From: Heterodontus francisci
Lineage: Eukaryota
Assembly: GCF_036365525.1 (NCBI RefSeq)
Contig: NC_090373.1
Location: forward strand, 97,683,461-97,747,460
DNA length: 64,000 nucleotides
Direction: 5' to 3'
Below, in pieces: positions 6,928-63,712 of this stretch. Every line of letters starts with the position of its first letter. Within the stretch, counting starts at the first letter, position 1. Both the position numbers and the translations under genes were made by a program. The notes under the pieces are model-generated. The model did not search any database. It had not been told where the DNA came from and saw nothing but the letters and a program-made list of their open reading frames with translations.

Positions 6928-7007
6928 GACCTCCAGAAAACAGTACTATGGCCTGCCAAAGATAATTTAGCAGAACTGATTTATACATTTTAGTCTGAAA
7001 CTGTGAG

Positions 7008-8978: not shown

Positions 8979-9340
8979 TTTTTTTTTTAATTTGTTTATG
9001 GGATGTGGGTGTCACTGACTAGGCCAGCATTTATTGCCCATCACTAATTGCCATTGAACTGAGTGACTTACTAGGCCATTGCTGTGGGTCTGGAATCATG
9101 TGCAGACCAGGTAAGGACAGCATATTTCCTTCCCTAAAGGACATTAGTGAACCAGATGGGTTTTTACAGCAATTGACAATGGTTTCATGGTCACCATTAG
9201 ACTAGCTTTTAATTGCAGATTTATTAATTGAATTCAAATTTCACCATCTGTCATGGTGGGATATGAACCCATGCCCCCAGAACATGAGCCTAGGCGCTGG
9301 ATTACTAGTCCAGTGAATTTACCACTACACCTCTGCTTCC
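8979..9340 (-). mobile_element. tRNA-headed SINE (probably MetaSINE-type) matching the head plus tail of the LINE at 46831-50095
   Basis: Reverse complement: A-box-like ggtgtagtgg, B-box-like gggttcatatccc, body ggttcactaatgtcctttagggaaggaaa, then actcagtt joined to caa.ggcaattag.gatgggcaataaatgctggcct...cccacatccca and poly-A. Confidence 0.85.
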
Positions 9341-9702
9341 TCCATGGTCCAGTACCAGTCAGGAAGGTTCTTCCTAATAAATAGTAGTTTAGTGTCTCCA
9401 CTGCCTATTTGATCACTTAACTCTCTTTCTGAACTGTAGCATAGTTGTGTTTTCAAGGCAGCAACTTTCTATTCAGGTACATTATGGGATGCTTGGCATC
9501 TTCGATAACCTGGGATAATGCTGTGCTTAGCTCAACATCTGATGCATCTTTCTGGAGGCTGAACTCCCAGGAGAAATCCAGAACGATCAGTACTGAGTCT
9601 GAGGATAAGGTATCCCTGATGTCCACAAATGCTGTTTCCCCTCAAGGGGTCTATCGGACCATAATCTGCTCCCAGGATTTGATTTGATTGCCTGTTGGCA
9701 AA

Positions 9703-17733: not shown

Positions 17734-18078
17734 AGCAGTAGGCTAACTTTATCAGTAGCTCACTCCAGAAGGTAAAACATGATCTGACCACAATCAAAAG
17801 CTTGTGAGTCTTCTGCCCTCTCAGGTGCTGCTGCCAGGCTTGTCCAATCAAGGAGCGCGTGACTGACTTCTCTGCCCACAGCTCCCTCTATTACCAGGGT
17901 TTCTGTTCTATTTTTAACTTGAGACATGTGACAACCAGTATACATTTTTGCCAAACTAGTTCTTTCAGTGTCCCCTTGATGACTCTTTTGAAAAAAAAAC
18001 TGGTCCAACATTTATTCAGTTTGACTATGAAATACTTCACGAATATTTTAATTTAAATAAATCACCTCCTTAACAATA

Positions 18079-23800: not shown

Positions 23801-24465
23801 CAAGAAGGGTATCAGGGATAAACCAGGTAATTACAGGCCAGTGAGACTAACATCAGTGGTAGGGAAACTATTGGAAAAGATTCTGAGGGACAGGATTAAT
23901 CTCCACTTGGAGAGGCAAGGATTAATCAGGAATAGTCAGCATGGCTTTGTCAAGGGAGATCATGTCTAACAAATTTGATTGAATTTTTCAAGGAGGTGAC
24001 AAGGTGTGTAGATGAGGGTAAAGCAGTTGATGTAATCAACATGGACTTCAGTAAGGCTTTTGATAAGGTCCCGCATGGGAGATTGGTCAAGAAGGTCAGA
24101 GCCCATGGGATCCAGGATAATTTGGCAAATTGGATACAAAATTGGCTTCGTGGCAGGAGGCAGAGGGTGATGTTCCAGGGTTGTTTTTGCAATTGGAAGC
24201 CTGTGACCAGTGGTGTACCGCAGGGATCGGTGCTGGGACCTTTGCTGTTTGTAGTGTACAATAATGATTGAGACGTGAATATAGGAGGTATGATCAGTAA
24301 TTTCGCAGATGACATGAAAATTGGTGGTGACGTAAATAGTGAGGAGGAAAGTCTTAGATTACAGGACGATATAGATGGGCTGGTAAGATGAACAGGGCAG
24401 TGGCAGATGGAATTTAATCCTGAGAAGTGTGAAGTGATGCATTTAGGAGGACTAACAAGGCAAGG

Positions 24466-24715
24466 CAACCACCTGCAAGTTCCCCTCCAAGTCACAGACC
24501 ATCCTGACTTGGAACTATATCGCCGTTACTTCAGTGTCGCTGGGTCAAAATCCTGGAACTCCCTTCCTAACAGCACTATGGGTATATCTACCCCAAATGG
24601 ACTGCAGCGCTTCAAGAAGGCAGCTCACCACCACCTTCTCAAGGGCAACTAGGGATGGGCAATAAATGCTGGCCTGGCCAGTGATGCCCACATCCCATGA
24701 ATGAATTAAAAAAAA
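24466..24715 (+). mobile_element. 3' fragment of the SINE-headed LINE family (46831-50095), inserted into CR1
   Basis: Near-identical to 49846-50095 (accacctgcaagttcccctccaagtcac...ccaccaccttctcaagggcaa...cccacatcccatgaatgaatt plus poly-A). It includes ORF sequence absent from the SINE. Confidence 0.9.
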
Positions 24716-25304: not shown

Positions 25305-28304
25305 CAAAGAACAAAGAACAGTACAGCACAGGAACAGGCCATTCGGCCCACCAAGCCTGCGCCAATCATGATGTCTGAATAAACTAAAACCTTCTGCACT
25401 TCCGAGGTCCGTATCCCTCTATTCCCTTCCTATTCATGTATTTGTCAAGATGTCTCTTAAACGTCGCTATCATATATGCTTCCATCACCTATCCTGGCAG
25501 CAAGTTCCAGGCACTCACCACCCTCTGTGTAAAAAAAACTTGCCTCGCACATCCCCTCTAAACTTTGCCCCTCTCACCTTAAACCTATGTCCCCTAGTAA
25601 CTGACTCTTTCACCCTGGGAAAAAGCTTCTGACTATCCACTCTGTCCATGCCACTCATAACTTTGTAAACCTCTATCATTTCGCCCCTCCATCTCCGTCG
25701 TTCCAGTGAAAACAATCCAAGTTTATCCAACCCCTCCTCATAGCTAATACCCTCCAGACCAGGCAACATCCTGGTAAAACTCTTCTGTACCCTGTCCAAA
25801 GCCTCCACATCATTCTGGTATGTGGTGACCAGAATTGTACATAATATTCCAAGTGTGGCCTAACTAAAGTTCTGTACAGCTGCAGCACGACTTGCCAATA
25901 TTTATACTCAATGCCCCGACCGATGAAGGCAAGCATGCCGTATGCCTTTTTGACTACCTTATCCACCTGCGTTGCCACTTTCAGTGATCTGTGGACCTGT
26001 ACGCCCAGATCTCTCTGCCTGTCAATACTCCTAAGAGTTCTGCCATTTACTGTATACTTCCCACCTGTATTAGATCTTCCAAAATGCATTACCTCACATT
26101 TGTTCGGATTAAACTCCATCTACCATTTCTCCGCCCAAGTCTCCAACCGATCTATATCCTGCTGTATCCTCTGACAATCCTCATCATTATCCGCAACTCC
26201 ACCAACCTTTGTGTCGTTTTCAAACTTACTAATCAGACCAGCTACATCTTCCTCCAAATCATTTCTATATACTACAAACAGCAAAGATCCCAGCACTGAT
26301 CCCTGCAGAACACCACTAGTCACATCCCTCCATTCAGAAAAGCATCCTTCCACTGCTACCCTCTGTCTTCTATGACCGAGCCAATTCTGTATCCATCTTG
26401 CTAGCTCACCTCTGATCCCGTGTGACTTCACCTTTTGTACCAGCCTGCCATGAGGGATCTTGTCAAAGGCTTTACTGAATTCCATGTAGATAACATCCAG
26501 TGCCCTTCCTTCATCAATCATCTTCGTCACTTCCTCAAAAAACTCAATCAAGTTAGTGAGACACGACCTCCCCTTCACAAAACCATGCTGCCTCTCGTTA
26601 ATAAGTCCATTTGTTTCCAAATGGGAGTAAATCCTGTCCCAAAGAATCCTCTTCAATAATTTCCCTACCACTGACGTAAGGCTCACCGGCCTATAATTTC
26701 CTGGGTTATCCTTGCTACCCTTCTTAAACAAAGGAACAACATTGGCTATTCTCCAGTCCTCTGGGACCTCACCTGTAGCCATTGAGGATACAAAGATTTC
26801 TGTCAAGGCCCCGGCAATTTCCTCCCTTGCCTCCCTCAGTATTCTGGGGTAGATCCCATCAAGCACTGGGGACTTATCTACCTTAATGGTTTGCAAGACA
26901 CCCAACACCTCATCTTTTTTGATATCGACATGACCCAGCCTATCTACACTCCCTTCCCTAGACTCATCATCCACCAAGTCCTTCTCTTTGGTGAATACTG
27001 ATGCAAAATACTCATGCAGTACCTCACCCATTTCCTCTGGCTCAACGCATAGATTCCCTCCTCTGTCCTTGAGTGGGCCAACCCTTTCCCTGGCTACCCT
27101 CTTGCTCTTTATATACGTATAAAAAGCCTTGGGATTCTCCTTAATCCTGTTTGCTAATGACTTTTCATGACCCCTTTTCACCCTCCTGACTCCTTGCTTA
27201 AGTTCCTTCCTACTTTCTTTATATTCCTCAAGGGCTTTGTCTGTTCCCAGCCTTCTAGCCTTTACGAATGCTTCCTTACTAGGCTCACAATATCCCTCGT
27301 TATCCAAGGTTCCCGAAACTTATCCTTCATCCTCACAGGAACATGCTGGTCCTTGATTCTAATCAACTGACGTCTGAAAGACTCCCACATGTCAGATGTT
27401 GATTTACCCTCAAACTGCCGCCCCCAATCTAAATTCTTCAGTTCCTGCCTAATATTGTTATAATTAGCCTTCCCCCAGTTTAGCACCTTCACCCGAGGAC
27501 TACTCTTCTCCTTATCCGCAAGTACCTTAAAACTTATGGAATTATGGTCACTGTTCCTGAACTGCTCCCCTACTGAAACTTCGACCACCTGGCCGGGCTC
27601 ATTCCCCAATACCAGGTCCAATACGGCCCCTTCCCTAGTTGGACTATCTACATATTGTTTCAAGAAGCCCTCCTGGATGCTCCTTACAAATTCTGCCCTA
27701 TCCAAGCCCCTAGCACTAAGTGAATCCCAGTCAATATAGGGAAGTTAAAATCACCCACCACAACAACCCTGTTGCTTTTACATCTTTCCAAAGTCTGTCT
27801 ACATATCTGCTCCTCTACCTCCCGCTGGCTGTTGGAAGGCCTGTAGTAAACCCTCAACATTGTGACTGCACCCTTCCTATTCCTGAGCTCTACCCATATT
27901 GTCTCGCTGCATGATCCCTCTGAGGTGTCCTCCCGCAGTACAGCTGTGATATTCTCCTTAACCAGTCATGCAACTCCCCCACCCCTTTTACATCCCTTTT
28001 TATCCCGCCTGAAGCATCTCAATCCTGGAACGTTTAGCTGCCAATCCTGTCCTTCCCTCAACCAAGTCTCTGTAATAGCAACAATATCAGAGTTCCAAGT
28101 ACTAATCCAAACTCTAAGTTCATCTGCCTTACCTGTTATACTTTCATTGAAACAAATGCACTTCAGACCACCAGTCCCGCTGTGCTCAGCAACATCTCTC
28201 TACCTGCTCTTCTGCTCAGTCTTACTGGCCTTATTTCCCCTCAGTTATTTTACCTGTTGACCTACTGCTCTGGTTCCCACCCCCCCCTGCCACACTAGTT
28301 TAAA
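25305..28304 (-). mobile_element. CR1/HER1-like LINE ORF2, inverted and nested in another CR1
   Basis: ORFs 26120-27307 (RT) and 27262-27705 (APE end). Tail (tgttctt)n at 25305-25320. Short TSD TTTA (25301-25304 and 28305-28308). The host reads accctcacgacc|tttaagaagtatttag across the insertion. Confidence 0.92.
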
Positions 28305-36088: not shown

Positions 36089-39000
36089 GGGCTGGATTTT
36101 CGGGTTCTGTCGGCAGACAGAGGTCCAAAATACTAGCCATGTTCACAGGGCTGGGGGAGGGCAGGCCCATGATCCTGCCAGATCGCTGATTAAGGCCAAT
36201 TAAGCTGGTTAGGGAGCTCATTAATGGGGGATGTTGTGATTTTCGTGGGGGCACGCGGGCTGCAAACACTGTCTGGGGCAGACCAGTTGAAGGGTGGCAG
36301 GTACACAGTGGGGAGCCAGTCATGGCTGCCCCAGGGAATTACCTGGGCCCCATACAAGGGTGAATGGCATAGAGGGGGACTCGGCCAATGACAAACAAGT
36401 GCCTTTGGGACAGTGCAGGTGGCAGGGAGAGTGGGCAGTAAGCACTTGGGCAGTGCAGGGTGTCATCACTCTCCTGGCAAGGCACGGGCATAAGAGCAGG
36501 GGGCAAGGCTACCAAGGACAATTGGGTGACCACTTGACCACAAGGAAGGCAGCAGATGGCAGCGGGGGCACAATTCTTAGATTTTGGGCCCAGTTGTGAT
36601 GAGGAGCAACACTCTCACCAGGAAGGATGGAGCCCCTGGCATCAGGAGGGCAAAGGAGAGGAATGAGGGACAGGAAGGACATGGAGGCCATACCCTCAGC
36701 ATAGGGTCTACTGGCAAAGATGAAGCTACCCAGAGATGACTGAGATCCAGTGCTGCAGGAGACCATGATTCTCCAGGCACAGAGCTCTGTTATCTCGTCT
36801 CCGAAGACCTCACACCTCGCAGCACTGCTCACCAAGTCCTGACAGTAGCCATCAAAGTCACTGTGGCTTTGAACGTCTTCACTTCTCTCTCCTTCCAAAG
36901 ATCAGCTTTGGACCTTGGTGGCATCTCACAAACGGCAGCAACACCACTACATCTCACAGGTCACTGATGCCCGATTTGTCAGAACTGGACACTATATTCA
37001 GTTCATGAATGTGACCTCGCAGGCACAGCAGGCAGTGGGTTTCACCACCATCTCTAGACTCCCCCAGGTGCAGGGCGTCATTGATTGCACCCATGTGGCC
37101 ATCAAGGCACTGAGTGACGGCATAATCAGATTCATCAACAGAAAGGGCTTCGACTCCCTCAATGTTCAGCTGCTCTGCGACCATAACAACAGCTTCCTCC
37201 ATGTGTGCACTTGCTTTCCTGACAGCTGCTATGACTCCTCCATCCTCTGCCATTCCAGTCTGCCACTGTTCTTCACTCCAACCCCTAATGTCTGTGAATT
37301 GATCCCAGCTGAGAAGCCCAGACAGAGGCACTGAGGCGATACAACCAAAGCCATCTGCTCACTAGGACCACCATTGAGCAGGCAAACGGGCTTCTGAAGA
37401 TGCTGTTCCATTTCCTGGACCACTCTGGTGGCATCCTGCAATACACTCCTGCTAGGGTCTCACTCATCATGGTGGTTTGCTGTGCTGTCCATTATGTGGC
37501 CCTCCCAGAGAGGTGTGGACCTTGAGGACAGTGAGGCCCTGGAAAGAGATAGCTCATCAGAGAAAGAGGAGGAGCAGGAAGGAAGAGGAGGCAGAGGGAG
37601 AGGATGCAGGACACCAACGTTCTCTGCCTGCATAGGGAAGTGCCGGCACAGCGCAGGGCTCAAAGTTCGGTCAGGATGCCATGAATTTCACAGATCATCA
37701 GATTCAGGCACATTTCATCTGAGCTCCTCTAACCCAGGATGAAGGGAATCATCAGGAACTCACCCTGAGCAGCCTGGAACATGCCAACTGTTAATGCCAA
37801 TGAATGATGCACATCTGCCTGGAGGTTTTGCTATCTCTGTTGAGGAACCCTTGATCTCCTTCACCACCTCATACCTCAATAAAAGGAGTCTCATATATGT
37901 GCCTTCAAGTGTCATTATTTACACAGTGCTCAGAAAGGTAAACAGTACACAGTTACAGGAAGAAGACCCAATCAGGACTCCACTTGGCCACTCTTATGCA
38001 GTGGCCCTGGATGAGGTGGAGGCAGCCTGCTCATTTGTCTTGACTTGAGGCTGAGATGCACATGGTGGTCATCCTCATTGTGGAGATGCCAGTGGGGATC
38101 TCCAGAGGCTGCATCTGCAGCATTGCGGAGGCAATTTCCGTCACTGGGCCCGCCTGCACAGATGGTTCCTCTGTCAGAGGGGCCAAGGAGGACGAGGATG
38201 ATTAAGGTGCCTTGTGAGGGATGACACCCTCATCCTCCTCAGTAACATCCTCAGCCCTTGGATAACATTCTGTATGGCTGGAGGGGAGCACCAGCTGGGC
38301 AGCAACTGGTTTCCCCTCCAAAGGTCTCTACGCCACCAGTGCCACTGATGAGTCCAGGCTAAATAATGTGCCTCGCATCCTGTGTATGTCAGTGTGTAGT
38401 TCCTGCATCCACTCCTTAAAGTGTTGCCACATATGGTCTTCCATGAGGTTGGCCACTGTCTCCAGGAACGAGCTCATGCACTCATAGCCCCGAGCAATGG
38501 TGACACACTTGAGCTGGATGGACTCCTCCATTCTCTGCCCATGACCCCGCACTGCCTCAGAGAACTCCAATGTCTGGGAACATAGCTGCTGCTGCTGGGC
38601 TAGTTAGAACCTCCTTTCCAGTGACTCCTGAGGCCCTGCATCTGTGCCCAGCTGAGCAGGGCTGTGTCTGTCCTCCCTCCTCCGAGGGGAACAGCCCACA
38701 GCTGCCTCTGGCACCTCCTCCTTCACACCAGTGCTGTGCTCCTCACCTAGTGCCACCCTATGAGGACCCACTGAGATGAGTGTATCTGCACTGGTGGATG
38801 GTGTGCTTGTAAGGTGTGATGATGCTTCTTCAAATCCTTGCTGGTCATCTTGACTGGGTGATGGAGAGGGAGATGGCCTCCCTGGGAGGACGTCTGCACC
38901 TATGTGAAACACAAGAAGAGATCTTGAGAACCAGCCTTGGAGAGCAGAAGCTTCCCAATGCAACACAGTGTTTGTCATGCTGTTGGCTGGGGTGAAGTGC

Positions 39001-39982: not shown

Positions 39983-40562
39983 CATGTGTGAGAAAGGGCA
40001 ATATTGTGAAAAAAATGACACCCTCTACTGATTAAGCACGTAATGTAGCTTTTGCTTTGTGTGCTTCAGAAAGTCCATTGTCCTGACAGGAAAGAGACAG
40101 ATGCAAATAATTTTGTTCACCTTTATAAAAGGGTTAAAGTGTAATGGGGCAAGACCTCAGTCTGCTGCTTTTGCCTGCCATTAACATTTGGCTAATTCTG
40201 ATGAATAGTGTTATTAAACTATTTAGGGTGAGCGTCCACTCTTGTACTGACATGAGAGGCATCCGCTGAGGAGCCGGAACTTGGAGCACCAGTCTGCTAC
40301 TCCAAAAGGGGACACTGACGGCTTGAAAGAAGCTGAAAAAGGTATTGATGAAATGTCCTCATTCCACTCTGTGATTGATTATCTTTGTTTGCTGCAGCAA
40401 TAGGCTCTTAAGGCCCAGAAAGTAAAGAAACATCTAATGAAATACTGGCCTTTATATCAAAGGTTTTGGAAATCAAAAGTGAGGAAGTGATGCTTCAGTT
40501 GTACAGAGTCTTGGTCAGAATCTATCTGAAGTATTGTATTCAGTTTTGGGCATCAAAACTCA

Positions 40563-41214
40563 CAGGTCTGTGTCCTCAGTACCTTGCTCTATGGCAGCGA
40601 GGCCTGGACAAAGTATGTCAGCCAAGAGCGACGTCTCAATTCATTCCATCTTCACTGCCTCCGGAGAATCCTTGGCATCAGGTGGCAGGACCATATCTCC
40701 AACACAAAAAGTCCTCGAGGCAGCCAACATCCCCAGCTTATACACACTACTGAGTCAGCGGCGCTTGAGATGGCTTGGCCATGTGAGCCGCATGGAAGAT
40801 GGCAGGATCCCCAAAGACACATTGTACAGCGAGCCCGCCACTGGTATCAGACCCACCGGCCGTCCATGTCTCCGCTTTAAAGACGTCTGCAAACGCAACA
40901 CGAAATCCTGTGACATTGATCACAAGTCATGGGAGTCAGTTGCCAGCGATCGCCAGAGCTGGCAGGCAGCCATAAAGGGCGGCGAGTCGAAGAGACTTCG
41001 CAGTTGGCAGGAAAAAAGACAGAAGCGCAAGGGGAGAGCCAACTGTGTAACAGCCCCGACAAACAATTTGTTCTGCAGCATCTGTGGAAGAGTCTGTCAC
41101 TCTAATATTGGCCTTTATAGCCACTCCAGACGCTGCTCCACAATCCACTGACCACCTCCAGGCGCTTACCCATTGTCTCTCGAGACAAGGAGGCCAAAGA
41201 AGAAGAAGAAGAAG
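40563..41214 (+). mobile_element. RTE-clade LINE 3' fragment, preceded by a short CR1 piece at ~40425-40552
   Basis: LLYGSEAW, LRWLGHVSRMEDGRIPK, C-terminal CSICGRVCHSNIGLYSH, and a (GAA)n tail at 41198-41214. Confidence 0.9.
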
Positions 41215-41970
41215 ATATCAAGGCATGGCTAATAATAACTGGTCTCAACTTTAGAATATGCCCGTGCAGTGATTTAGAATTCATAGACTTAAACAAACAA
41301 ATCATTTGAATGCAGCTCCAACCTAACAGCAGATTAACCTATAGTGTAAAATGGAAGATATTTGGTTGGCCACCTGATTGATTCTGTTGAGTTCAATGGA
41401 AATGAAAATCGGAACATGGCTGTTTTACACTTGCACCAAATTCTGTCTTCCATTTTGGTGCTTTAGAGATCCAAAATAACATTTGCATACAATGCAAATG
41501 ATAGACCATTTTATTAGTTCAGGAAGCAATTTTTGTGATGTTTTGAAATTGTGCTGTGTATGATTATTTACTTGGGTTAGTGATTGTGTTAAAATAGAGC
41601 ACAAATAAATTTACACGAGCATTACAAATAATGTATTGCTGCAATAAATGTAATCGTCTGCATTGTGTCTTTTCTTTAACAGGAACATATTTAATTCTGG
41701 GATTTTATTTTTCAGAAGCTAGGGTTTTCAATCCTAAAATCTTTCTCATCACTAAAATCCTTTCCATGCCTTTTAGCCTGCTTTTGAAAGTGCACTTCCA
41801 TTGTTTCAAATATGTCACTAATAATAGGTTGTTTTTACAGAAATCACAGATTAACCACAAATGAAGAAAATCACAGTTCTTGTTAAAGATCACTCCAATC
41901 AATACCTCTGAAATAAGAGCTTTGTCATCTCACCGTGATCTAAGGATTTGGACTATCGATGTGAAAAAGA

Positions 41971-43008
41971 ATGAATTTAACACATCTTGAGAAGTTAGAA
42001 GATGTGCAATACTGTTTTGAATTTGTCAATACCTCCTGTCCCAGAGTCACCAGGCCAACAGCAATCAATGCAGCACTGTACATTTTTATCACCATTTCAA
42101 TACTAATTACTATATTTGGAAATCTGGTGGTGATCATTTCTGTTTTACACTTCAAGCAACTACAGACACCCACCAACTGTCTTATCTTATCTTTAGCTGT
42201 TGTGGATTTTCTGGTGGGCTTTATTGTGTTGCCTTATAGTATGGTTAGGTCTGTAGAAACGTGCTGGTATTTTGGAGAAGTATTTTGTAAAATTCACTCA
42301 ATTATAGATATTGTATTGACCATAGTTTCGATTTATACTTTATGTTTTATTGCCATTGATCGTTACTATGCTATGTGTGACCCTTTGCTCCACTCTATAA
42401 AGATCACTCTGCCTATAATAATTGTGACTATGATATTAATCTGGTTGTTTGCTCTCTTTTATGGACTTAGTGTGTTTTTATTAGATTTCAGTAAAAAGTC
42501 AGTAGATGATTATATGGCTACTAGGTCTTGTGATGGCAGTTGTATTGCATATGATAAGTTTGAGGGGCACGTGGATGCACTGATTGTATTTTTTATTCCC
42601 ATTTTTATCATTTTAGGTGTATATGTCAAGATATTTTTTGTGATGAGGTGCAAACATGGTGGAAGAATTGGAAACATGTCACATAATAGCCACTGTACAG
42701 AAGAAAACAATATTAAAATCTTGCATAAAAAAGAGCAAATAGTTGTTAAAAACCAAGACATATTAATAGGAATTTTTACACTCTCCTGGCTGCCTTTCTA
42801 TGTAAATAGCATTCTGAACCCATATTTTAATTTTTTAATTCCACCAGCTATAGACAGTGTATTTGCGTGGTTTGGATTCTTTAATTCTACTTTAAACCCA
42901 TTGCTTTATGCTTTCTTGTATCCGTGGTTTCGCAAAACACTAAAACTTATACTTTCTGGTCAGATATTTAATTCAGATTCTTCTACAATTAATTTTCTTT
43001 CAGAGTAA
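41971..43008 (+). CDS. TAAR: Trace amine-associated receptor, 345 aa, single-exon CDS, divergent TM6
   Basis: [24 protein letters not shown]3.32 (D113), DRY, D5.42 (D202), SWLP and the fingerprint NSTLNPLLYAFLYPWFRK. AATAAA at 43039-43044. Confidence 0.93.
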   Translation: MNLTHLEKLEDVQYCFEFVNTSCPRVTRPTAINAALYIFITISILITIFGNLVVIISVLHFKQLQTPTNCLILSLAVVDFLVGFIVLPYSMVRSVETCWYFGEVFCKIHSIIDIVLTIVSIYTLCFIAIDRYYAMCDPLLHSIKITLPIIIVTMILIWLFALFYGLSVFLLDFSKKSVDDYMATRSCDGSCIAYDKFEGHVDALIVFFIPIFIILGVYVKIFFVMRCKHGGRIGNMSHNSHCTEENNIKILHKKEQIVVKNQDILIGIFTLSWLPFYVNSILNPYFNFLIPPAIDSVFAWFGFFNSTLNPLLYAFLYPWFRKTLKLILSGQIFNSDSSTINFLSE

Positions 43009-44699: not shown

Positions 44700-46805
44700 A
44701 AAAAACCAACAGGCTCTCCTGCATCATCTGTCTCCATAGCAAGTGGTACATGTGGGATGTCCCAGATAACATGAAGGGGAAAGGTAGGGCAAATAAATCC
44801 AGAGCTCCAGAGACAGACATTAAGATGAAGAAACAAAAATGTGCTTATGACAGATGTCAGGTGGATAATGCATCTGAGATCCAGGCTGAATATAGAAGGT
44901 TCAGAAGGGAAGTGAAAAGCAAATAAGAGAAGCAAAGAGAGAGTATGAAAAGAGACAGACAGCTAACATCAAAGGGAATCCAGAAGTCTTCTACAGGTAT
45001 ATTCAATGTAAAAGCATAGTAAAAGGAGGAGTGGGGCTTTGGTATTAAATTAATACTTTGCATCTATCTTTGCCAAGGAAGATGCTGTGCAGATCATGGT
45101 GAAAAAGGAGATTATTCAGACACTTTAAAATTGATATGGAGGAATCATTGGATAGGCTAGCTGTACTTAAAGTTGATAAGGCACCAGGACTGGATGAGAC
45201 GCATCCAATAATGCTGAGGGAAGTGAGAATGGACATTTTTTTTTATTCGTTCATGGGATGTGGGTGTCACTGGCTCAGCCAGCATTTATTGCCCATCCCT
45301 AATTGCCCACTGAAGGCATTTCAGAGTCAAGCAAATTGCAGATGCACTGACCATAATTTTCCAGTCTTCTTTAGATTCACGGGTCATGCCAGAGGTCTGG
45401 AGAATTTCAAATGTTACACCCTTGTTCAAAAAAGGGTGTAAAGATAAGCCCAGCAACTACAGGCCAGTCAGTTTAACTTCAGTGGAAGCTTCTAGAAAAG
45501 ATAATTCAGGACAAAATTAATAGTCACTTGGGCACTTGCGAGTTAATTAGAGAAAGCCAGCACGGAGCTGTGAAGGGCAAATCATGTTTAACTAACTTGT
45601 TGGGATTTTTTTGAAGAGGTAACAGAATGGGTTGATTAGGGTAATGCTGTTGATGTGGTATACAACTTCCAAAAAGCATTTCATAAAGTGCCAAACAACA
45701 GACTTGTGAGCAAAGTTATAGCTCATGGAATAAAAGGAGTAGTAGAAACAGGGATACGAAATTAGCTGAGTGACAGGAAACAGAAAGTAGTGCTAAATGG
45801 ATGTTTTTCAGACTGGAGGAATGTTTGTAATGGAGTTCCCCAAGGGTCGGTGTAGGACCTTTGCTGTTCCTGATTTATATTAATGACATCGACCTTGGTG
45901 TACAGGGCATGATATGAAACTTGGAAACATTGTGAACTGTGAGGAGCACAGCGTAGAACATCAAATCACATAGTTGGTAGAATGGGCAGACAAGTGGCAG
46001 GTGAAATGTATTGCAGAGAAGTGTGAAGTGATACATTTTTGTAGGAATAGTGCAAAGAGACAATATAAAATAAAAGATACAATTCTAAAAGGGGTGCAGG
46101 AGCAGAGGGACATGGGTGAATATGTACATAAGTCATTGAAGGTGGCAGGACAGGTTGAGAGAGCAGTTATAAGAACATACAGCATCCTAGGCATCACTAA
46201 TAGAGGCATAGAGTACAAAAGCAAGGAAGTTATATTAAACTTGTATAGGATACTGGTTTGGCGTCAACTGGACAATTGTGTCCAGTTCTGGGTGCCTCAC
46301 TTTAGGAAAGACATCAAGGCATTGGAAAGAGTGCAGAAAAGATTCATGAGAATGGTTCCAGGGAAGAAAAACTTCTGTTAGATAGATTGGAGAAGTTGGG
46401 GGACTGTTCTCCTTGGAGAAGAGGAGGTTGAGAGGAGATTTGATAAAGGTATTCAAAATCATCAAAATTATGAGGGTCTGGACAGAGTAGATAGGGAAAA
46501 ACTGTTCCCACTGGTGGAAGGATCGAGAAGAAGAGGGCACAGACATAAGGTCATTGGCAAAAGAAGCAATAGCGACATAAGGAAAAACTTTTTCACGCAG
46601 CGAATGGTTGGGATCTGGAATACACTGCCAGAGAGTGTGGTGGAGGCAGGTTCCATCGAGGCATTCAAGATGGAATTGAATTGTTATCTGAAAATGAGGA
46701 ATATTCTGGGCTATAAGGAGAAGACGGGGGAGTGGCACTAGGTAAATTGCTCTTTCAGAGAGCCAGTGCAGACATGATGGGCTGTAACAATTCTGTGATT
46801 CTGTG
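44700..46805 (+). mobile_element. Decayed CR1 LINE ORF2 and 3' end
   Basis: LKVDKAPGLDETHP, NYRPVSL, WADKWQVK, VQFWVPHFRKDI, FFTQRMVGIWN, and a (ttctgtga)n tail at ~46791-46806. Confidence 0.85.
45236..45330 (-). mobile_element. Short tail fragment of the SINE/LINE family at 8979 and 46831
   Basis: poly-T followed by attcgttcatgggatgtgggtgtcactggctcagccagcatttattgcccatccctaattgccc. Confidence 0.8.
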
Positions 46806-46840
46806 AAAGGGTGTAAGCAATGCTTTTCAAGGGTAGGCAG

Positions 46841-46923
46841 TGGCGTAGTGGTATTATCACTGGACTAGTAACCCAGAGACCCAGGGTATTTCTCTGGGGA
46901 CATGGGTTCATGGGTTTGAATCC
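46841..46923 (+). promoter_or_regulatory. tRNA-type internal Pol III promoter (A and B boxes)
   Basis: A box TGGCGTAGTGG at 46841-46851. B box GGTTTGAATCC at 46913-46923 (one change from GGTTCGAATCC), preceded by a small catgggtt duplication. Confidence 0.75.
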
Positions 46924-47135
46924 CACCACAGCAGAAGGTGGAATTTGAATGAATGAATAAATCTGGAATTAAAAGCTAGTCTAGTGATGGCCATGAAACC
47001 ATTGTCGATTGTTGTAAAAACCTATCTGGTTCACTAATGTCCTTTAGGGAAGGAAATCTGCTGTCCTTACCTGGTCTGGCCTACATGTGACTCCAGACCC
47101 ACAGAAATGTGCTTAACTCTTACATGCCCTCTGAA

Positions 47136-50033
47136 ATGGCCTTGCAAGCCACTCAGTTGTACCTAACCGCTACAAAGTCAATAAAAAGGAATGAAACCGG
47201 ACGGACCACCCAGCATCAACCTAGGCACCGGAAACGACAACGGCAAACCCAGCCCTGTCGACCCTGCAAAGTCCTCCTTACTAACATCTGGGGGCTGGTG
47301 CCAAAGTTGGGAGAGCTGTCCCACAGACTAGTCAAGCAAAAGCCTGACATAGTTATACTAACGGAATCATACCTTCCAGACAATGTCCCAGACACTGCCA
47401 TCACCATCCCCGGGTATGTCCTGTCTCACCGGCAGGATAGACCCACCAGAGGTGGTGGCACAGTGGTATACAGTAGGGAGGGAGTTGCCCTGGGAGTCCT
47501 CAACATCGACTCCGGACCCCATGAAGTCTCATGGCATCAGGTCAAACATGGGCAAGGTAACCTCCTGCTGATTACCACCTACCGCCCTCCCTCAGCTGAT
47601 GACTCAGTACTCCTCCATGTTGAACACCACTTCGAGGAAGTACTGAGGGTGGCAAGGGCACAAAATGTACTCTGGGTGGGGGACTTCAATGTCCATCACC
47701 AAGAGTGGCTCGGTAGCACCACTACTGACTGAGCTGGCCGAGTCCTAAAGGACATAACTACTAGACTGGGTCTGCGGCAGGTGGTGGGGGAACCAACACG
47801 AGGGAAAAACATACTTGACCTCGTCCTCACCAATCTGCCTGCCGCAGATACTTCAGTCCATGACAGTATTGGTAGGAGTGACCACCGCACAGTCCTTGTG
47901 GAGACGAAGTCCCGCCTTCACATTGAAGATACCGTCCATCGTGTTGTGTGGCACGATCACCGTGCTAAATGGGATAGATTTCGAACAGATCTAGCAATGC
48001 AAAACTGGGCATCCATGAGGCGCTGTGGACCATCAGCAGCAGCAGAATTGTACTCAACCACAATCTGTAACCTCATGGCCCGGCATATCCCCCACTCTAC
48101 CATTACCGTCAAGCCAGGAGACCAACCCTGGTTCAATGAAGAGTGCAGGAGGGCATGCCAGGAGCAGCACAGGCATACCTCAAAATGAGTTGTCAACCTG
48201 GTGAAGCTACAACCCAAGACTACTTGCATGCCAAACTGCGTAAGCAGCATGCGATAGACAGAGATAAGCGATCCCATAACCAACGGATCAGATCTAAGCT
48301 CTGCAGTCCTGCCACATCCAGCCGTGAATGGTGGTGGACAATTAAACAAGTAACTGGAGGAGGTGGCTCCACAAATATCCCCATCCTCAATGATGGGGAG
48401 CCCAGAACATCATTGCGAAAGATAAGGCTGAAGCATTTGCAACAATCTTCAGCCAGAAGTCCCCAGCATCACAGATACCAGACTTCAGCCAATTCGATTC
48501 ACTCCGCATGATATCAAGAAACGACTGAAGGCACTGGATACTGCAAAGGCTATGGGCCCTGACAATATTCCGGCAATAGTACTGAAGACCTGTGCTCCAG
48601 AACTTGCCTCGCCCCAAGCCAAGCTGTTCCAGTACAGCTACAACACTGACATCTACCCTGCAATGTGGAAAATTGTCCAGGTATGTCCTGTACACAAAAA
48701 GCAGGACAAGTCCAACCCGGCCAATTACTGCCCCATCAGCCGACTCTCAATCATCAGTAAAGTGATGGAAGGTGTCATCAACAGTGCCATCAAGCGGCAC
48801 TTGCTTAGCAATAACCTGCTCAGTGACGCTCAGTTTGGGTTCCGCCAGGGCCACTCAGCTCCTGACCTCATTACAGCCTTGGTTCAAACATGGACAAAAG
48901 AGCTGAACTCAAGAGGTGAGGTGAGAGTGACTACCCTTGACATCAAGGCAACATTTGACTGAGTATGGCATCAAGGAGCCCTAGCAAAACTGAAGTCAAT
49001 GGGAATCAGGGGGAAAACCCTCCGCTGGTTGGAGTCATACCTAGTGCAAAGGAAGATGGTTGTGGTTGTTGGAGGTCAATCATCTGAGCTCCAGGACATC
49101 ACTGCAGGAGTTCCTCAAGGTAGTGTCCTAGGCCCAACCATCTTCAGCTTCCTCATCAATGACCTTCCTTCAATCATAAGGTCAGAAGTGGGGATGTGCG
49201 CTGATGATTGCACAATGATCAGTACCATTCATGACTGCTCAGATACTGAAGAAGTCCGTGTAGAAATGCAGCAAGACCTGGACAACATCCAGGCTTGGAC
49301 TGATAAGTGGCAAGTAACATTCGCGCCACACAAGTGCCAGGCAATGACCATCTCCAACAAGGGAGAATCTAACCATCTCCCCTTGACATTCAACGGCATT
49401 ACCATCGCTGAATCCCCCACTATCAACATCCTAGGGGCTACCATTGACCAGAAACTGAACTGGAGTAGCCATATAAATACCATGGCTACAAGAGCAGGTC
49501 AGAGGCTGGGAATCCTGAGGCGAGTAACTCACCTCCTGACTCCCCAAAGCCTGTCCACCATCTAAAAGGCACAAGTCAGGAGTGTGATGGAATACTCTCG
49601 ACTTGCCTGGATGGGTGCAGCTCCAACAACACTCAAGAAGCTCAACACCATCCAGGACAAAGCAGCCCACATGATTGGCACCCCATCTATAAACATTCAC
49701 TCCCTTCATCACCGACGCACAGTGGCAGCAGTGTGTCCCATCTACAGGATGCACTGCAGCAATGCACCAAGGATCCTTCAACAGCTCCTTCCAAACCCAC
49801 GACCTCTACCAACTAGAAGGACAAGGGCAGCAAATACATGGGAACGCCACCACCTGCATGTTCCCCTCCAAGTCACACACCATCCTGACTTGGAACTATA
49901 TCGCCGTTCCTTCACTGTCACTGGGTCAAAATCCTGGAACTCCCTTGCTAACAGCAATGTGGGTGTACCTACCCCAAATGGACTGCAGCGGTTCAAGAAG
50001 ACAGCTCACCACCACCTTCTCAAGGGCAATTAG
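47136..50033 (+). pseudogene. Single APE-RT ORF of the SINE-headed LINE, broken by stops and frameshifts
   Basis: ATG in gaaATGg context inside the SINE-shared body, in frame with RHRKRQRQ and the APE domain. Stops at 47730, 48960 and 49563. Frameshifts or deletion at ~48170, ~48400-48460 and ~49845. Confidence 0.8.
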
Positions 50034-52274
50034 GGATGGGCAATAAATGCTGGCCTGGCCAGCGATGCCCACATCCCATGAATGAATTTTAAAAATGTTT
50101 ATGCCATTTCTCCAAGGATTCAGCTGATCTTCTGCTGAAGTTACTCCATAATATCAGGACAGCCAGCCAAACATCACCTTCACCACCCGATGAGATTCTA
50201 TTTTAAGGAGAATCAAATGGTACATTTCTGACTGGTTCTATTCCCATATTGATAATTAACACATTGATTTGGGGAAAATAACAGTTGGAAAATACAACCT
50301 TAAGATACTTCCACTACCTCCCTAAAAGTAATCATACTATACTACAATCAGCTACTCAGCTCAGCTAGAACTTTTGACCACCAGACCACTGGAGTCTGCA
50401 TCTCTCGAATGTTGCCATTCGTATGGTAAAGGTTTGAGAAACCCCAAATAAAGAGCGTAAATAGCCATTTCAGCCACTTATCACAGTTTTCCACCAATCT
50501 TCAGCAAAACGTACAAAGGAGAATCTGGAAAACCACTATGAAAAGTCGTGGTCAGTAACTTCAGATGAGGGAATAAAGTAGGAGAGGGAAAAGTTAACTC
50601 AAATGTGTGAGGTATGACACAATAGGTAGACATAATGAAGCACAAACAAGATTTAAATAATTGATAGATTGGCAAAATATAATGTAGCTTTCATAATTAA
50701 GTTTTAACAGGAGATATCAAAGTGAATCATCCATATTCATTTGAAATAATTGGATTGAGTCATTGTTAAATTGCAGTAAATCTAGGTTCAATAGAATGTT
50801 TAAAACAAGGAGTAACAGTAATTATGCAACATACCACTATCAGCAGTAAATATTAACAAACATTGTTAACCCAAGGATATTATAGGGTTTGAACTCCTTC
50901 ATCTTTTCTTTGTTCAGTATTTCTTTGTTTGCCTACCAGGACAATACATGTTATGTGTTATTTAAATGAACCAATAAACACTTGACAAAGGATTAACAAG
51001 ATTGGTTGCAACTCTGATGCAAACCAGAAATCCTAATTGGCCGCACTATTCTACGTCAATTAGGCTGGATTCAAAACCAATACTTTATGCCTTTCATGTT
51101 AGAGTATGTCCCTGTAATTCAGTACGTGCACTGGATCTAAGATATTTCAAGAGAAGTCACAAAGAGGGATCCATGAAAACGAAGACCTGAGTTGGAGCAA
51201 CACTTATCAGATTTCACCATCAAGAGCCTAGAAAAATTCTTCAAGCACAAACGCATTCTCTGGTTAAGGTATTCATTTGGCTGCGGTGAGATTTTGTGGA
51301 AATCTGTGAGATGTGATTTGATCAGCAGTAACAGTGCTCCCACAGCCTGTATCATTGTCACTCCAGTTAACTTGAGATGAATATTGAATGATTGATATTA
51401 TGCTATAAACTTAGTTAAAGTTAAAAGAAGTCACTGCTGCAGTCATTATAAAAGTGGTAATATTTGTTAAATGCTCTTACAAAGTTTGCAAATTTTGTTT
51501 CATCTTGACTTGTGAAGAAACAAATAGGTCAGAGCCATTCCAAGGATCTTTTCTGTTGTGACCAGCATTGCGACAGAGTGACAGTGGAACTCAGGAGTCA
51601 GGTCCAGTGTCTTTATAATTTAAATATAGTGTTCAGCTGGGTTTAAAATGTGATCTTTGGACATCCATTGCATTCCCTGAGATTACCCAGAGCTTAATTA
51701 AAAGTATTGAGAGTGTAGGTGCTTAGATGAATGCTTTCAATGCATTTAAAATTTAATAGCTTGGAACAGAGCTTTGTGTATGTGTATAATTACATGGGTA
51801 TAAACAAGGTACTGCTTGGGTGGAACCGTTACTATATTGACCAGTTTCAAGCCAGTAGCTACAGCATAAATACATCATCATGTTAATAAAATGTTTAAAT
51901 CAATCCAGTACAGAAATGAAATCTGTGAGCTCCCTTGATGACTCTCTTTCTGGAGTTTACACAGTATAAGATGGATCGCACAGACCAGCAGCTTCCAAAT
52001 ATGAACGCTGAATAAATTTCTCTCAGCTATGGCCCTATCATCTGAACTGGGTTTTATAAATATCTATAATAAGCCATTGAACTTTATCCACTGCATGAGT
52101 GAATACAGGATTCATAGGAACTGATAAATAATCATATTAAATTGTACCAAATGTGCTTTTCCACAGGAATTAACTTCAAATACAAAAGGATTCAACACTA
52201 GATCGAGATTACCACAAACTCCTATTTTCTGAATTGTCTCATTTCTATCTCAAGGTTTTACTGAAAGAAGAAAA

Positions 52275-53312
52275 ATGAATTCAACACAACTTCAGGATAT
52301 GGGGGACACACAATTCTGCTTTGAATTTGTCAATATTTCCTGCCCCAAAACCAACAGGTCGACAGCAGTCCATGTAGCATTATACATCCTCTTTGTAGTT
52401 ATCATAATAATTACAATTTTAGGCAACTCGCTGGTGATGCTTTCAATTTTGCATTTTCGGAAACTACAGACACCCACCAATTATCTTGTACTTTCACTCG
52501 CTGTAACTGATTTTCTAGTGGGGCTCATTGTTTTGCCTTATAGTATGATTAGGTCTGTTGACACATGTTGGTACTTTGGAGATATATTTTGTAAAATCCA
52601 TTCCGGTTTGGACATGGTCCTGACAATAACATCTATTTATCACCTGTGTTTTATTGCCATTGACCGCTACTATGCTGTGTGTGAACCTTTGCTCTACACT
52701 ACAAAAATTACTCTGCCTGTAATTGGTATATTTATTACATTTAGTTGGGTATTTTCTATAGTTTATGGATTTGCTTTAATTTACTCAGACGCTAATGTGT
52801 ATGGAATAGAGGATTATATCAGTGCCATTTCTTGCTATGGTAGCTGTGTACTCATATTTAATAAATTATGGGGCCATCTGGATCCACTGATAGCATTTTT
52901 TGTTCCTGTTTTGGTTATTGTCTATATATACCTCAAGATATTTTTTGTGGCAAGACAGCATGCTCGAGCAATTGGAAACGTAATGCACAGAAAGAACGTG
53001 AAACAGGAAAACAATATCGGAGGTTCCCACAAAAAAGAATTCAAGGCTGCAGTAAAACTGGGGGTTGTAATAGGTGTCTTCATTATCTGCTGGTTGCCAT
53101 TTTTCATAATTACTATTGTTGATCCTTACATTGATTTCTCAACACCACCAGCAGTATTTGAAATGTTTGTATGGCTTGGTTATTTTAATTCTACTTGCAA
53201 TCCAATGCTTTATGCCTTTTTTTACCCCTGGTTTCGCAAAGCACTAAAAATGATTATTTCTTGTAAGATATTTGAAGACGACTCTACAATGCTGAATATG
53301 TACCCAGAATAA
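52275..53312 (+). CDS. TAAR: Trace amine-associated receptor, 345 aa, TAAR13-like diamine-binding residues
   Basis: QFCFEFVNISC, GNSLV, LAVTDF, D3.32 (D113), DRY, W4.50, D5.42 (D203), KAAVKLG, CWLP, D6.58 (D283), W7.40/Y7.43 and NSTCNPMLYAFFYPWFRKALK. Acceptor at 52165-52166, AATAAA at 53563-53568. Confidence 0.96.
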   Translation: MNSTQLQDMGDTQFCFEFVNISCPKTNRSTAVHVALYILFVVIIIITILGNSLVMLSILHFRKLQTPTNYLVLSLAVTDFLVGLIVLPYSMIRSVDTCWYFGDIFCKIHSGLDMVLTITSIYHLCFIAIDRYYAVCEPLLYTTKITLPVIGIFITFSWVFSIVYGFALIYSDANVYGIEDYISAISCYGSCVLIFNKLWGHLDPLIAFFVPVLVIVYIYLKIFFVARQHARAIGNVMHRKNVKQENNIGGSHKKEFKAAVKLGVVIGVFIICWLPFFIITIVDPYIDFSTPPAVFEMFVWLGYFNSTCNPMLYAFFYPWFRKALKMIISCKIFEDDSTMLNMYPE

Positions 53313-54928
53313 CCACATTTTACCAAGTAGGAGATTGTTAATAACCTGTTCTTTGTGACACCAATGAGCTGTATACTCTGTGATAGCACTTTCTTTTAGA
53401 GGCATAATTGTTTCATATTCTATTGAAATATAGTTTGCTCTGATACTTATGAATATGTATTTGAAAATTCTGACAGTAAACTTGTAATGTGTATAATAAG
53501 TTCTATTTTAATGTAAACATGTTTTCTACATGTTACAGAGGAAAGTGCATGCTGTAAACGTTAATAAAGCAATATCAGTGTTTAGAAGATCCATACTGAA
53601 TTCAAAAAGGTGTACCTGTGCAGGGTCTTGTGATATTACAGAACTGCCAATGGTATCGGTGCCAATAGCCTACCCCTGTGCTGGTCAATACAAGCTTGAC
53701 ACATTTTGAGATTTCCCTCTATGCTGTCATGAAGAGGTCTATGGGCTGGATTTTCATTATGGAGACGGGAAACAGGAACCAGGTCTGAAACCCGCCTCTG
53801 GTGGGAAACTGATTCAGATAGAGATTTTAAAATAGGTGAGCCCTTAATTGGTATGGAGACAGATTTCCTGTCCACTTAGAGCCACTGGGGCTGAGAATGA
53901 AGGTGAGTAAGATCAAGTGTGGGGCTCATGTAAAGTCCCATGGCATCCATCACTGAGGCTGCTTGTTGTCCTGAGGGAGAGATCTGCCTTTCACTGCACC
54001 AGGGAGAAGTGAGATCTCACAGGGGAGCCAGAGGCCTGGCACTAGGGGCAGGGCAGACCCTTGCTTCATCGATGGCGACCTGTATTTAATGCTGCAGGCC
54101 ATGAGGGAGAGAAGAGTGGTCCTCCTCCCAGAGGGCGGCAGGAGGAGGCCATCTTGGCATGCAGCAGGGGCATCTCTTGTTATTCCCTTCCATCTCTTCT
54201 TCCTCCTCCTCCGTTACGTCCTGCTTCACCCCCAAAGAGCTGCTTCATTCCAGGGCCTCACTGTTCTCAAAGTCCACACCTCTCTGGAGGGCCATGTTAT
54301 GCAGTGCGCAGCAGACCACCACAATGACTGAGACCCTTGCAGGAAGATATTGGAGGGTTCCATCTGACCAATCCAGATACCAGAATCAATGGCCTACTCA
54401 ATGTTTGGCCTGCTAAGCAGGTGGTATTGGTTGTATTGCCTCTGTGCCTCTGTCTGGGGCTCCCATAGAGGGGTCAGTAGCCATCTCTTCAAGGGATTTC
54501 CCTTGTCCCCTTGGATCCATCCATGCACTTTCAGGGATGGAGTGAAAATCCAAGGCAGTCTGGACTGGCGTAGGATGAGGTAGTCATGGCAGCTGCCAAG
54601 AAAACGAGCACACACATGGAGCAAGCTCTTGTTGTGGTCGCAGACCAGTTGAACGTTGAGGGAGTGGAAGGCTTTCCTGTTGATGGATCTCACTGGCCGG
54701 TTACTGGGTGCCTTGATGGGCCACATGGGCGCAATCGATGATGTCCTGCACCTGGAGGAATCCAGCGATTGAGGCTGGACCCAATGTCCTCCGTGCCAGC
54801 ACAGGCCCATTTGTGTGAAAGTGGATGTAGTACCTCGCCCTCTGGAATATGGAATCCGTGACCTGCCTGATGGCTTGATGAGCTGCCGACTGCGAGATGC
54901 CACCTAGGTCAACAGCAGATCACTGGAA

Positions 54929-61149: not shown

Positions 61150-61622
61150 AGTCATAGAGTTTTACAGCACAGAAACAGGCCCTTCGGCCCCATGCGCCTG
61201 CGCCGACCATCAAGCACCCGTCCAAACTGATCCCATTTCCCCGCATTTGGCCTATAGCCTTGTATGCTATGGTGTTTCAAGTGTTCATCTAAAAACTTCT
61301 TGAATGTTGTGAGTGTTCCTGCCTCTACCACCTCTTCAGGCAGTGTGTTCCAGATTCCAACCACCCTCTGGGTGAAAAGATTTCTCCTCAACTTCCCTCT
61401 AAACCTTCTGCCCCTTACCTTAAATCTATGCCCCCTAGTTATTAACCTCTCCGCTAAGGGAAAAAGTTTCTTCCTATCTCTCCTATCAATGCCCCTCATA
61501 ATCTTGTACACCTCAATCAGGTTCCCCCTCAGCCTTCTCCACTCCAAGGAAAACAACCCCAGCCTATCTAGTCTGTCTTCATAACTGAAATGCTCCAGCC
61601 CAGGCAATATCCTGGTGAATCT
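61150..61622 (-). mobile_element. CR1 LINE 3' end, close to the family at 20954-28457
   Basis: ORF 61152-61607: LPGLEHFSYEDRLDRLGLFSLE...FTQRVVGIWN...; tail gggccgaagggcctgtttctgtgctgta plus (ctctatga)n. Confidence 0.9.
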
Positions 61623-63712
61623 GTTCTATTAGTGTTGGCTGCATAACACTATCATTTAACTTAGCAGGCAGTATGAGGTTTGGGTGCTGCCTGCATTAGT
61701 TTAACTGGGCAGGGTTTAATCACGCATTGCAATCCCTGTTTTCAGAAGCTATCAAATTTCTAGCCCATAGAAATTGCAATGGGGTGGTAAAAAGAGTTTT
61801 ACAAGCATATTCAACAATGGATCTGAGGTTGCTGAAGAAAATCAGAGAAGATATAGCAGTGCCTCAGACCTCAATTTTTCACTCCTCTTTAGATGTGCAA
61901 ATAATGCTGGGACATAGTCAATGTAGCATCTCTGTTCAGGAAATGAGAGATAGACGAAATGGGTAACTCTAAACCTTGACAAACTATCATTCAAAATCAA
62001 ATCAGCTGGTATTTACAGATGCACCAGTTAATTAATAACAGCTGGCATAGATTTGTTGAGCACAAGTCTTGTTCAATAAAATTCATAGTTTTTAGACGAA
62101 TTGTCCATGTGAATTTGGCAGACATAATGGCCCAGATCTTTCTGCAAAAATAACAGCAAGTTTATTGGTACCAGTATTAATGCATAAATCAGCCATCGAG
62201 TTGTGGTTAGAAAGAGATACACTTTGAACTGTGAATTGTCACAAGTTGCTGAACTATTTTCACATTGCCCATTAGATTTGCAAAAATGGCAGATCACCCA
62301 CAACATTACCCTGTGTTTCAAGAAATTGCAGCATTTGCAGATTAATTGCCAATTAAACTTGCCACAGAAAGTTAGGGCTAGCACTAACAGCATAAATAAC
62401 TTTTTAATGAGGAGATTTATGCTCAGGCCCAGAAAGAGACCTATTTAAACTGCGAAGTCTCAATCCTGCCAGCATTAAATTGTTAGCGATTTAAAAAAAA
62501 TCTATTTTTTGAAAAAACTAACCATTTGCCTCATATTTCCTTCTCTCTTAACCCATTCTTTCTTTCCCTCTCTTTAATTCTCTTTCTGTATCTGATGTGG
62601 CTCTAATTCATCCTGTTTCCTTCTCAGTCCTTCAGTTTCTTTCTGCTTAAATGTCATTGGTTAAAGCAATAGACTGTTGGTCCGATCATTTACTAAGGTT
62701 CGAAAAGCCCCTTTGTCCTCATCATTTTCTTATCAATTTATACTTCCAGCAACTTTTAGGGAAATCTTTTTCTGAATTGATGGGTGAGGGAAAAGTTCTA
62801 ACCGACAGGGGATGCTGCAAAATGTTCCAAGATATATGAATTTTCAGTTGTTCAATAAGGTGTCTCACTTGAAACTTTTTAGAATCTAGGATGGGGAATT
62901 TTCCCAATATTTAATTCAAATTACAATGATACATCATGCAGCCAATACAGTTTATTTTCATGACCACTTAACCCTTAGAGTGTCAGCTGCCTTTTTAATG
63001 TCGTTTCTCAGAGACAGAGAGCTCAAATATCAACTAATATTTTATAATAATTCAAATAACGTGCTAGGGACAGTTTAATTAGTGTAATACCTGTTATGGG
63101 TTAAAAACAGTGAATAGTTTTAAGATTCTGATGGTACTGGATCTGTTTTTGCTAAGTAGTATAGGTCTCATTCCTGAGGCCCACTCCTCTAGCCAGCCCT
63201 TTCTGTTTAGTGGCAGTATTGGGTTTGCTGCTTTGCTTCTTTTTCCTTAATCTGACTAAAGAGTACTTACCTAGTCCCCTCATTTTTGCAACAAACAAGT
63301 CTTGCATGTCAGGATTTTGCCACACATTTTCACAGGCAACAAAGCTAGTTTCAAATTAAAAATGCCAATGTAAACCTGGTTTTAATTTTCTTATTTCCAG
63401 TGCATTATAAATTTTGGGGGGATGATATGTTAGCCATATTATAGCAGAAAAGTCACACGTTAGATTGGGAAACAGATATGCAAGGTCCCAGCCTTTCCTG
63501 GATCCTTGTTTGGGGCTAAGCTCCAAGAGAAGAAGCAGCTGGGGACAAGGATTACTAGGCCAGGAGGTCCTTCATTCCCAGCCTGGCAGAGCATTAGTGG
63601 GTCAGTGCGTCAGGTGAGAGCAAACATACTGGCTCATCCCACTGCACTTGTGGGGCCTAGATGGTGATCCAAACCTGGATTGTAGTCTGGAAACCAAAGA
63701 AAGAAGAAATTT

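Follow-up and report, generated by a model that had tools for sequence, protein, structure and literature searches.

Current reviews hold as a rule that long interspersed elements (LINEs) are protein-coding and transcribed by RNA polymerase II (Pol II), while SINEs (short interspersed elements) do not encode protein and rely on RNA polymerase III (Pol III) for transcription (PMC10886601). The same split is drawn by Kojima 2018 (PMC5786205) and Kojima 2024 (PMC10886601), with element length limited by the processivity of Pol III. We analyzed a retrotransposon copy located at positions 46831..50095 of a 64,000-nucleotide (nt) stretch of the Heterodontus francisci genome (contig NC_090373.1, positions 97,683,461 to 97,747,460; hereafter the window), together with the family to which it belongs. 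This family is a LINE by its coding capacity and a SINE by its promoter and terminator hygiene, a combination that is real and unusual, and its sequence suggests, with a probability of about 0.7, that it is an autonomous LINE whose transcription is carried out by Pol III.

Several described systems share part of this organization. tRNA-derived SINEs (SINE2) are alike in having an A/B-box head, a body, a short tail in common with a LINE and no internal run of four T (T4) (PMC5499810, PMC7245038), whereas in the family it is the autonomous element that bears the head, together with an endonuclease-reverse transcriptase (RT) frame under purifying selection. SINE2 elements are short and non-coding, which the family, with 3.29 kb and 975 codons, is not; they also lack internal Pol III terminators, as the family does with the sole exception of a TATTT in the head of its young subfamily. 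T+ SINEs (B2, Dip, Ves, Can) resemble it in AATAAA, a variable T-run and poly(A), longer T-runs going with shorter A-runs (PMC8466645, PMC9599045, PMC12358842), but they are non-coding, mammalian and shorter than 600 bp, and only 14 of 52 ends of the family have T4 or more. Single open reading frame (ORF) LINEs of the RTE group, and ORF2 of the CR1 group, share the APE and RT domains and the frequent 5' truncation, and RTE elements have a bipartite short derivative comparable to the SINE of this family (PMC5786205); in contrast to them, the 5' untranslated region (UTR) of the family is a Pol III-type head and there is no AUG start. Unlike the vertebrate CR1 clade, the family has no ORF1 before ORF2, and in a quick tree its RT lies outside the shark-CR1 group.

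Outside the SINEs, Pol III promoters derived from small RNAs have been described in the TRIMp3 retrotransposons (Cassandra, Helenus, Ajax), which differ in being long terminal repeat (LTR)-type, non-autonomous, non-coding and at most 1.3 kb (PMC10886601). Among cartilaginous fish, the Deu-SINE SacSINE1 and the V-SINE HE1 are tRNA-headed SINEs whose tail of 140-160 nt is common with L2-2_CM (PMC5499810, PMC3747384), whereas the companion SINE described below takes a tail of ~65 nt from its own LINE, as judged from the published descriptions. A Deu-SINE body was unsupported, the 12-nt Deu core motif being absent at up to 2 mismatches and a by-eye comparison with the Deu alignment (PMC7245038 supplement) showing no match. 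The available portion of Luchetti 2017 (PMC5499810) describes shark SINEs, and a headed LINE is not among them. No Pol III-transcribed autonomous LINE was found in the full-text literature searched, which takes in few subscription papers and neither Repbase nor Dfam, so the family itself may already be catalogued without the Pol III reading.

The tRNA-type head is a fixed part of the element

The 6.0-Gb genome was searched and 70 loci were inspected, 30 from a first search and 40 matching the head-ORF junction; since the latter were chosen on that junction, the sample is biased towards the head. It contained 43 distinct uninterrupted head-to-tail copies of ~3.29 kb with unrelated flanks, 27 truncated or interrupted loci being excluded from this set. 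The copies diverge by 2.2-4.7% from their own majority sequence, to which the window copy is 95.9% identical across its entire length. They are dispersed and A-rich at the 3' end, 5' truncation occurs, and LTRs are absent.

As a control for the head bias, 30 loci (the window's own included) were picked with endonuclease DNA alone. The A/B-box head was present on 26 of them, 23 starting there and three having the head split by an insertion; the remaining four were 5'-truncated, one of them adjoining an older head. Neither an ORF1 nor an alternative common 5' end was found among these 30, in agreement with the preliminary description of a tRNA-type head running into an endonuclease-RT without ORF1. 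When head and body alone were used as query, 19 of the 20 matches examined (from the 39 best non-self ones) continued into the frame, and in an older subfamily, 76-83% alike, this head is likewise joined to this frame. These results show that the element carries the head as a constant component, inherited along with the rest, and a chance SINE beside a truncated LINE was rejected on the two counts of 26/30 and 19/20. A search for a head-less sister family in the genome, made with a 66% relic, brought back the same family.

The A box of the window copy, TGGCGTAGTGG, is the commonest variant (23 of 43 copies), other variants being mostly products of CpG decay. The B box reads GGTTTGAATCC here, preceded by an 8-nt duplication, and GGTTCGAATCC in the family majority (25 of 43). 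In 48 of 55 heads the 5' end is preceded by a purine, as is established for Pol III starts. ARAGORN found no tRNA and the sole Rfam match over the head, tRNA-Sec, scored 16.5 bits (E=2), far under the cut-off; a real tRNA gene was thus rejected, and the head consists of tRNA-type boxes rather than of a tRNA gene. No hepatitis delta virus (HDV)-like ribozyme or other Rfam family was detected at E<=10 in 46700-47300.

The majority sequence has one endonuclease-RT frame of ~975 codons, whose first in-frame Met is codon 284, past the endonuclease, and another genomic copy (L098) is open across 990 codons. The single frame reported earlier therefore stands for the family and not for the window copy, which is broken by stops at 47730, 48960 and 49563 and by deletions of 1 nt near 48170 and 48395 and of 37 nt near 48456. 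Neither a CCHC finger nor an RNase H was found in the frame. Between the young and older subfamilies the endonuclease shows 14 synonymous and 7 non-synonymous codon changes, indicating purifying selection. Directly 5' of the frame lies a mini-ORF, ATG-GCC-TAG-CAA, also present in the older subfamily and in the companion SINE; the eight of 43 copies without TAG at family positions 305-307 are about twice the number expected from divergence, by a rough estimate. An ATG in the +1 frame at family position 354 is not retained in the older subfamily. Family positions 362-402 (~47199-47239 in the window) are CpG-rich, Arg-coding and identical in both subfamily majorities, which makes an RNA element or a basic peptide candidates for this segment. 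No 2A-type motif or stable structure was seen by eye at the head-ORF junction.

The companion SINE (~385 nt; 16 of 39 matches aligned) joins the head and body to a tail that starts inside the last codons of the LINE. The joint lies at a short CTCAG/CTCAAG similarity, which suits the birth of the SINE by deletion from the headed LINE, the alternative being that the LINE captured a SINE. A further locus, L323, holds a young SINE-like form made by deletion (element 3-336 joined to 3207-3286), whose breakpoints differ from those of the main SINE: the LINE has given rise to short forms on more than one occasion.

T-runs are avoided on the sense strand at synonymous sites

The preliminary description had counted by eye no T4, eight TTT (four of them in the ORF) and about 14 runs of four or more A in the sense strand of the element. 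Our recount of 46831-50086 agrees for the T-runs (the four TTT lie within 47091-50033) and gives 15 A-runs. The first T4, at 50087-50090, comes just ahead of the A tail, and nowhere else in the window, on either strand, is there a T4-free stretch as long as these 3263 nt, the next being 1248 (+) and 1754 (-). Each of six CR1 and RTE pieces in the window has between 1 and 10 T4 runs in the sense strand, bearing out the earlier remark on the nearby CR1 copies. T4 is absent from the family majority and from the body of 35 of the 43 copies, and 1426 nt of the older subfamily contain a single TTT (1) and lack T4.

Synonymous shuffles preserving the codon usage and composition of the element gave 12.9 TTT for the family frame, where four are observed (none of 5000 shuffles was as low); all four are in-frame phenylalanine (Phe) codons. 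At codon junctions that would make TTT, T is used at 0 of 53 sites (0/28 before TTN codons, 0/25 as NTT+T) against 40 of 191 elsewhere. T4 plus TVTTT number 0 against 5.0 expected (P=0.007) and all terminator-like 5-mers 1 against 8.7 (P=0.002), whereas A-runs occur about as often as in the shuffles (38 vs 38.7). Apart from the CpG words, no trinucleotide is more depleted than TTT; TAT and TCT rank lower but are also depleted. The suggestion that T-runs might simply occur at the frequency expected from composition is excluded, with the weight lying in TTT and TVTTT.

The depletion that the preliminary description proposed to look for was also found relative to other elements of the same genome, where CR1 ORF2 has 44 TTT against 43.9 shuffled and two RTE frames have 11 against 11.1 and 10 against 9.7; TTT is not depleted in two trace amine-associated receptor (TAAR) genes either. 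As foreign controls, 80 metagenome loci yielded 57 usable LINE frames of at least 330 codons, with observed/shuffled ratios of 0.74-1.24, compared with 0.31 for the family. Two short foreign frames lacked T4, and an A-plus-B box pair occurred in 0 of 57. Frames of like T content (RTE at 21%; L231, L282, L212 and L217 at 20-22%) gave 0.85-1.18. The nearest relative with DNA, L209 (36% identical), has no A/B boxes, 20 T4 runs and a ratio of 1.03. We conclude that the family avoids T-runs strand-specifically at synonymous sites; among the ~60 LINE frames tested it alone bears this signature, which is what transcription by Pol III predicts.

Probable transcription by Pol III and its alternatives

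TTTT and TVTTT are the shortest functional Pol III terminators, and TTT alone stops little (PMC8466645). If the family is transcribed by Pol III, TFIIIC and Pol III would initiate 10-12 nt upstream of the A box, and the polymerase would traverse 3.3 kb owing to the purging of terminators from the frame, ending at the tail's T-run or in flanking DNA. The AATAAA at 50042-50047, followed 45 nt on by the T-run and then poly(A), could permit polyadenylation of the T+ SINE kind. The T-run measures 1-6 nt among 52 distinct 3' ends, and longer T-runs accompany shorter A-runs, a pattern that slippage alone could produce without Pol III. Translation of the uncapped RNA would begin without a standard AUG, either at the mini-ORF (through re-initiation or read-through) or at a near-cognate codon, and the encoded protein would copy the RNA by target-primed reverse transcription and mobilize the SINE too via the common tail. 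A scanned Pol II mRNA would sit poorly with the nine upstream ATGs of the majority sequence and with its AATAAA signals at family positions 119 and 343. That one uncapped 3.3-kb transcript serves as both mRNA and template, with an AUG-less start, a SINE of its own born by a single internal deletion and a lineage long established in this fish group, would have slightly better than even odds, judging from the sequence.

A number of observations speak against transcription by Pol III. The absence of T4 from the frame is not significant by itself (0 vs 2.1 shuffled, P=0.08), and the shuffles that contain neither T4 nor TVTTT have a mean of 10.9 TTT (n=83, minimum 6), where four are seen; as TTT is depleted beyond what purging of T4 and TVTTT requires, and TAT and TCT are low, a general avoidance of U would fit too. 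The head holds four TTT in 300 nt, denser than in the frame, and the TATTT at family positions 57-61 in 30 of 43 copies would weigh the same way, given that this motif stopped 42% of B2 transcripts (PMC8466645); it is missing from the older subfamily and the companion SINE. Pol III processivity has been considered too weak for long elements (Kojima 2024, PMC10886601). No in-frame AUG precedes the endonuclease in the family majority, and no start codon was found; codons 1-42, with 4 synonymous and 9 non-synonymous changes, display no protein-level constraint, and the junction folds no better than shuffles (z-scores -0.7 to +0.4), leaving no structure for cap-independent initiation. The preliminary description proposed counting full-length copies with target-site duplications (TSDs) that span head to tail: in the 43 head-to-tail copies TSD-like matches are rare and short (5-8 nt in 7 of 43 copies, against 5.4% in shuffled pairs). 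The controls are mostly distant and more T-rich, L209 being the one close head-less relative, and an amphioxus relative, P0039, compared as protein only, is lower in Phe (1.5%) than the family.

The alternative that survives best, although we consider it unlikely, is a Pol II LINE with a captured SINE serving as 5' UTR (or with read-through from a SINE), in which T-runs are avoided for reasons proper to Pol II, for example because they would create cryptic splice acceptors, polyadenylation elements rich in U, or U-rich motifs acting in decay and immunity. Pol II is the default polymerase of LINEs (PMC10886601, PMC5786205), translation is easier for a capped RNA, the head tolerates TATTT, and the depletion reaches TTT, TAT and TCT. 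The same hazards, however, apply to CR1 and RTE in this genome and to the 57 foreign frames, which show no avoidance; moreover, two subfamilies keep A and B boxes intact, the 5' ends of the element coincide with SINE-type 5' ends, and the early AATAAA signals and upstream ATGs persist. A G two bases before the head is not in excess (6 of 55), a weak point without TSDs.

Quite improbable, in our view, is a mixed use in which Pol III makes the template RNA and the protein is translated from less frequent transcripts, made by Pol II or by read-through, whether of the same copies or of others. It accounts for both the T-avoidance and the head and needs no translation of uncapped RNA, in keeping with the lack of a structure resembling an internal ribosome entry site; loci are also plentiful, with thousands of candidates (6154-34090 at first look, which are not copy numbers). 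Against it, the frame has no AUG start under either polymerase, and the purifying selection seen in the endonuclease is easiest to understand if the protein acts on its own RNA, the cis preference of LINE proteins. Finally, a compositional or ancestral trait of the lineage, independent of the head, is barely credible: Phe is also low in P0039 and P0036 and T makes up merely 19.7% of the frame, but the shuffles preserve codon usage and composition, the effect is specific to codon junctions and frames of like T content do not show it.

If the family is indeed transcribed by Pol III, it would represent a natural Pol III-transcribed protein-coding gene family, an "autonomous SINE", with a 3.3-kb natural Pol III mRNA and a tractable vertebrate example of translation that needs neither cap nor AUG. 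It would also offer a direct route of SINE birth, by deletion from a headed LINE, and a compact single-promoter design for retroelements. Further families of this kind could then be sought by a simple computational screen combining A/B boxes with avoidance of TTT at codon junctions, and low-Phe relatives in amphioxus and other animals may widen the class.

Relatives and surroundings of the element

The nearest database proteins are at most ~40% identical over the full length, the named ones coming from amphioxus and a moth. Phe makes up 1.8% of the family frame against a median of 4.3% across 149 homologues, only one of which is lower, and the family retains Phe in 14 of the 18 columns where it is conserved. 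The closest proteins, P0039 from amphioxus and P0036 (2.3% Phe, on contigs of 3.6-3.8 kb), may be further headed, T-poor LINEs. In a quick, unfinished RT tree of 58 rows the family falls outside a 27-row group holding shark CR1 (Shimodaira-Hasegawa-like approximate likelihood-ratio, SH-aLRT, support 99); this tree has a single RTE row, on a very long branch, and no named RTEX reference row, and RTEX is a tentative guess for the clade of the family. A single-protein metagenome scan and a viral scan gave no relatives, and an RT cluster atlas matched only unnamed RT clusters. The 1-kb 5' region of L209 (90-950), which has no A/B boxes, begins in a way that presumably resembles RTE-type 5' UTRs, and the lineage including L209 may swap its 5' modules.

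Among 23 sequencing runs listed for the element, all in the form of contigs and one recorded as RNA, four runs from four organisms cover all 30 bins of the element and show the SINE joint, which indicates presence only: they carry no strand, start or level, and none of the pieces listed fully spans head to ORF. Coordinates of the features in the window are collected in Table 1.

Table 1. Features of the LINE copy and of its surroundings (positions in the window; majority, family majority sequence)
Feature	Position	Strand	Remarks
Full-length decayed copy, 3.29-kb single-ORF non-LTR retrotransposon with SINE-type head	46831..50095	+	Sequence
tRNA-type head	46831..46935	+	5' end 10-11 nt upstream of A box
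A box (Pol III type-2 promoter)	46841..46851	+	Reads TGGCGTAGTGG
TATTT in young-subfamily head, possible weak Pol III terminator	46887..46891	+	Commonest variant, 30/43 copies
B box, damaged here (CpG decay)	46913..46923	+	Reads GGTTTGAATCC
Body common to LINE and companion SINE	46936..47158	+	8/9 upstream ATGs of majority here
In-frame mini-ORF ATG-GCC-(TAG)-CAA directly 5' of long frame	47136..47147	+	TTG here, TAG in 35/43
Single long frame	47145..50033	+	975 codons stop-to-stop in family; broken here
APE-type endonuclease domain	47271..47900	+	Pfam PF03372, E=3.8e-10; motifs LTESY, GDFN, SDH
Reverse transcriptase domain	48699..49442	+	Pfam PF00078, E=9e-08 and 5e-17; QGSVLGP, FADD in family
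3' tail common to LINE and companion SINE	50020..50086	+	Begins within last ORF codons
T4 then A5, variable T-run/poly(A) end	50087..50095	+	Sequence
Companion SINE, element 1-321 joined to 3222-end	8990..9342	-	86% and 90% to majority
5'-truncated 3' fragment, same LINE family	24455..24703	+	94% to majority 3038-3286
Tail-only fragment, LINE or SINE	45250..45308	-	93% to majority 3226-3284
Three G protein-coupled receptor (GPCR) frames	6999-8048, 41965-43008, 52233-53312	+	First split by stop 7482-7484
Other CR1 pieces	16573-17759, 21901-24500, 26120-27744, 61152-61625		
RTE 3' piece	40483-41151		

From their translations we take the three GPCR frames to be TAAR genes, and the frames at 36873-37334 (+) and 54394-54903 (-) resemble Harbinger/HARBI1-type transposases. 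The element abuts the 3' end of a CR1-type fragment (46000-46790, +), and the segment 36130-39215 of the window is T4-poor on both strands.

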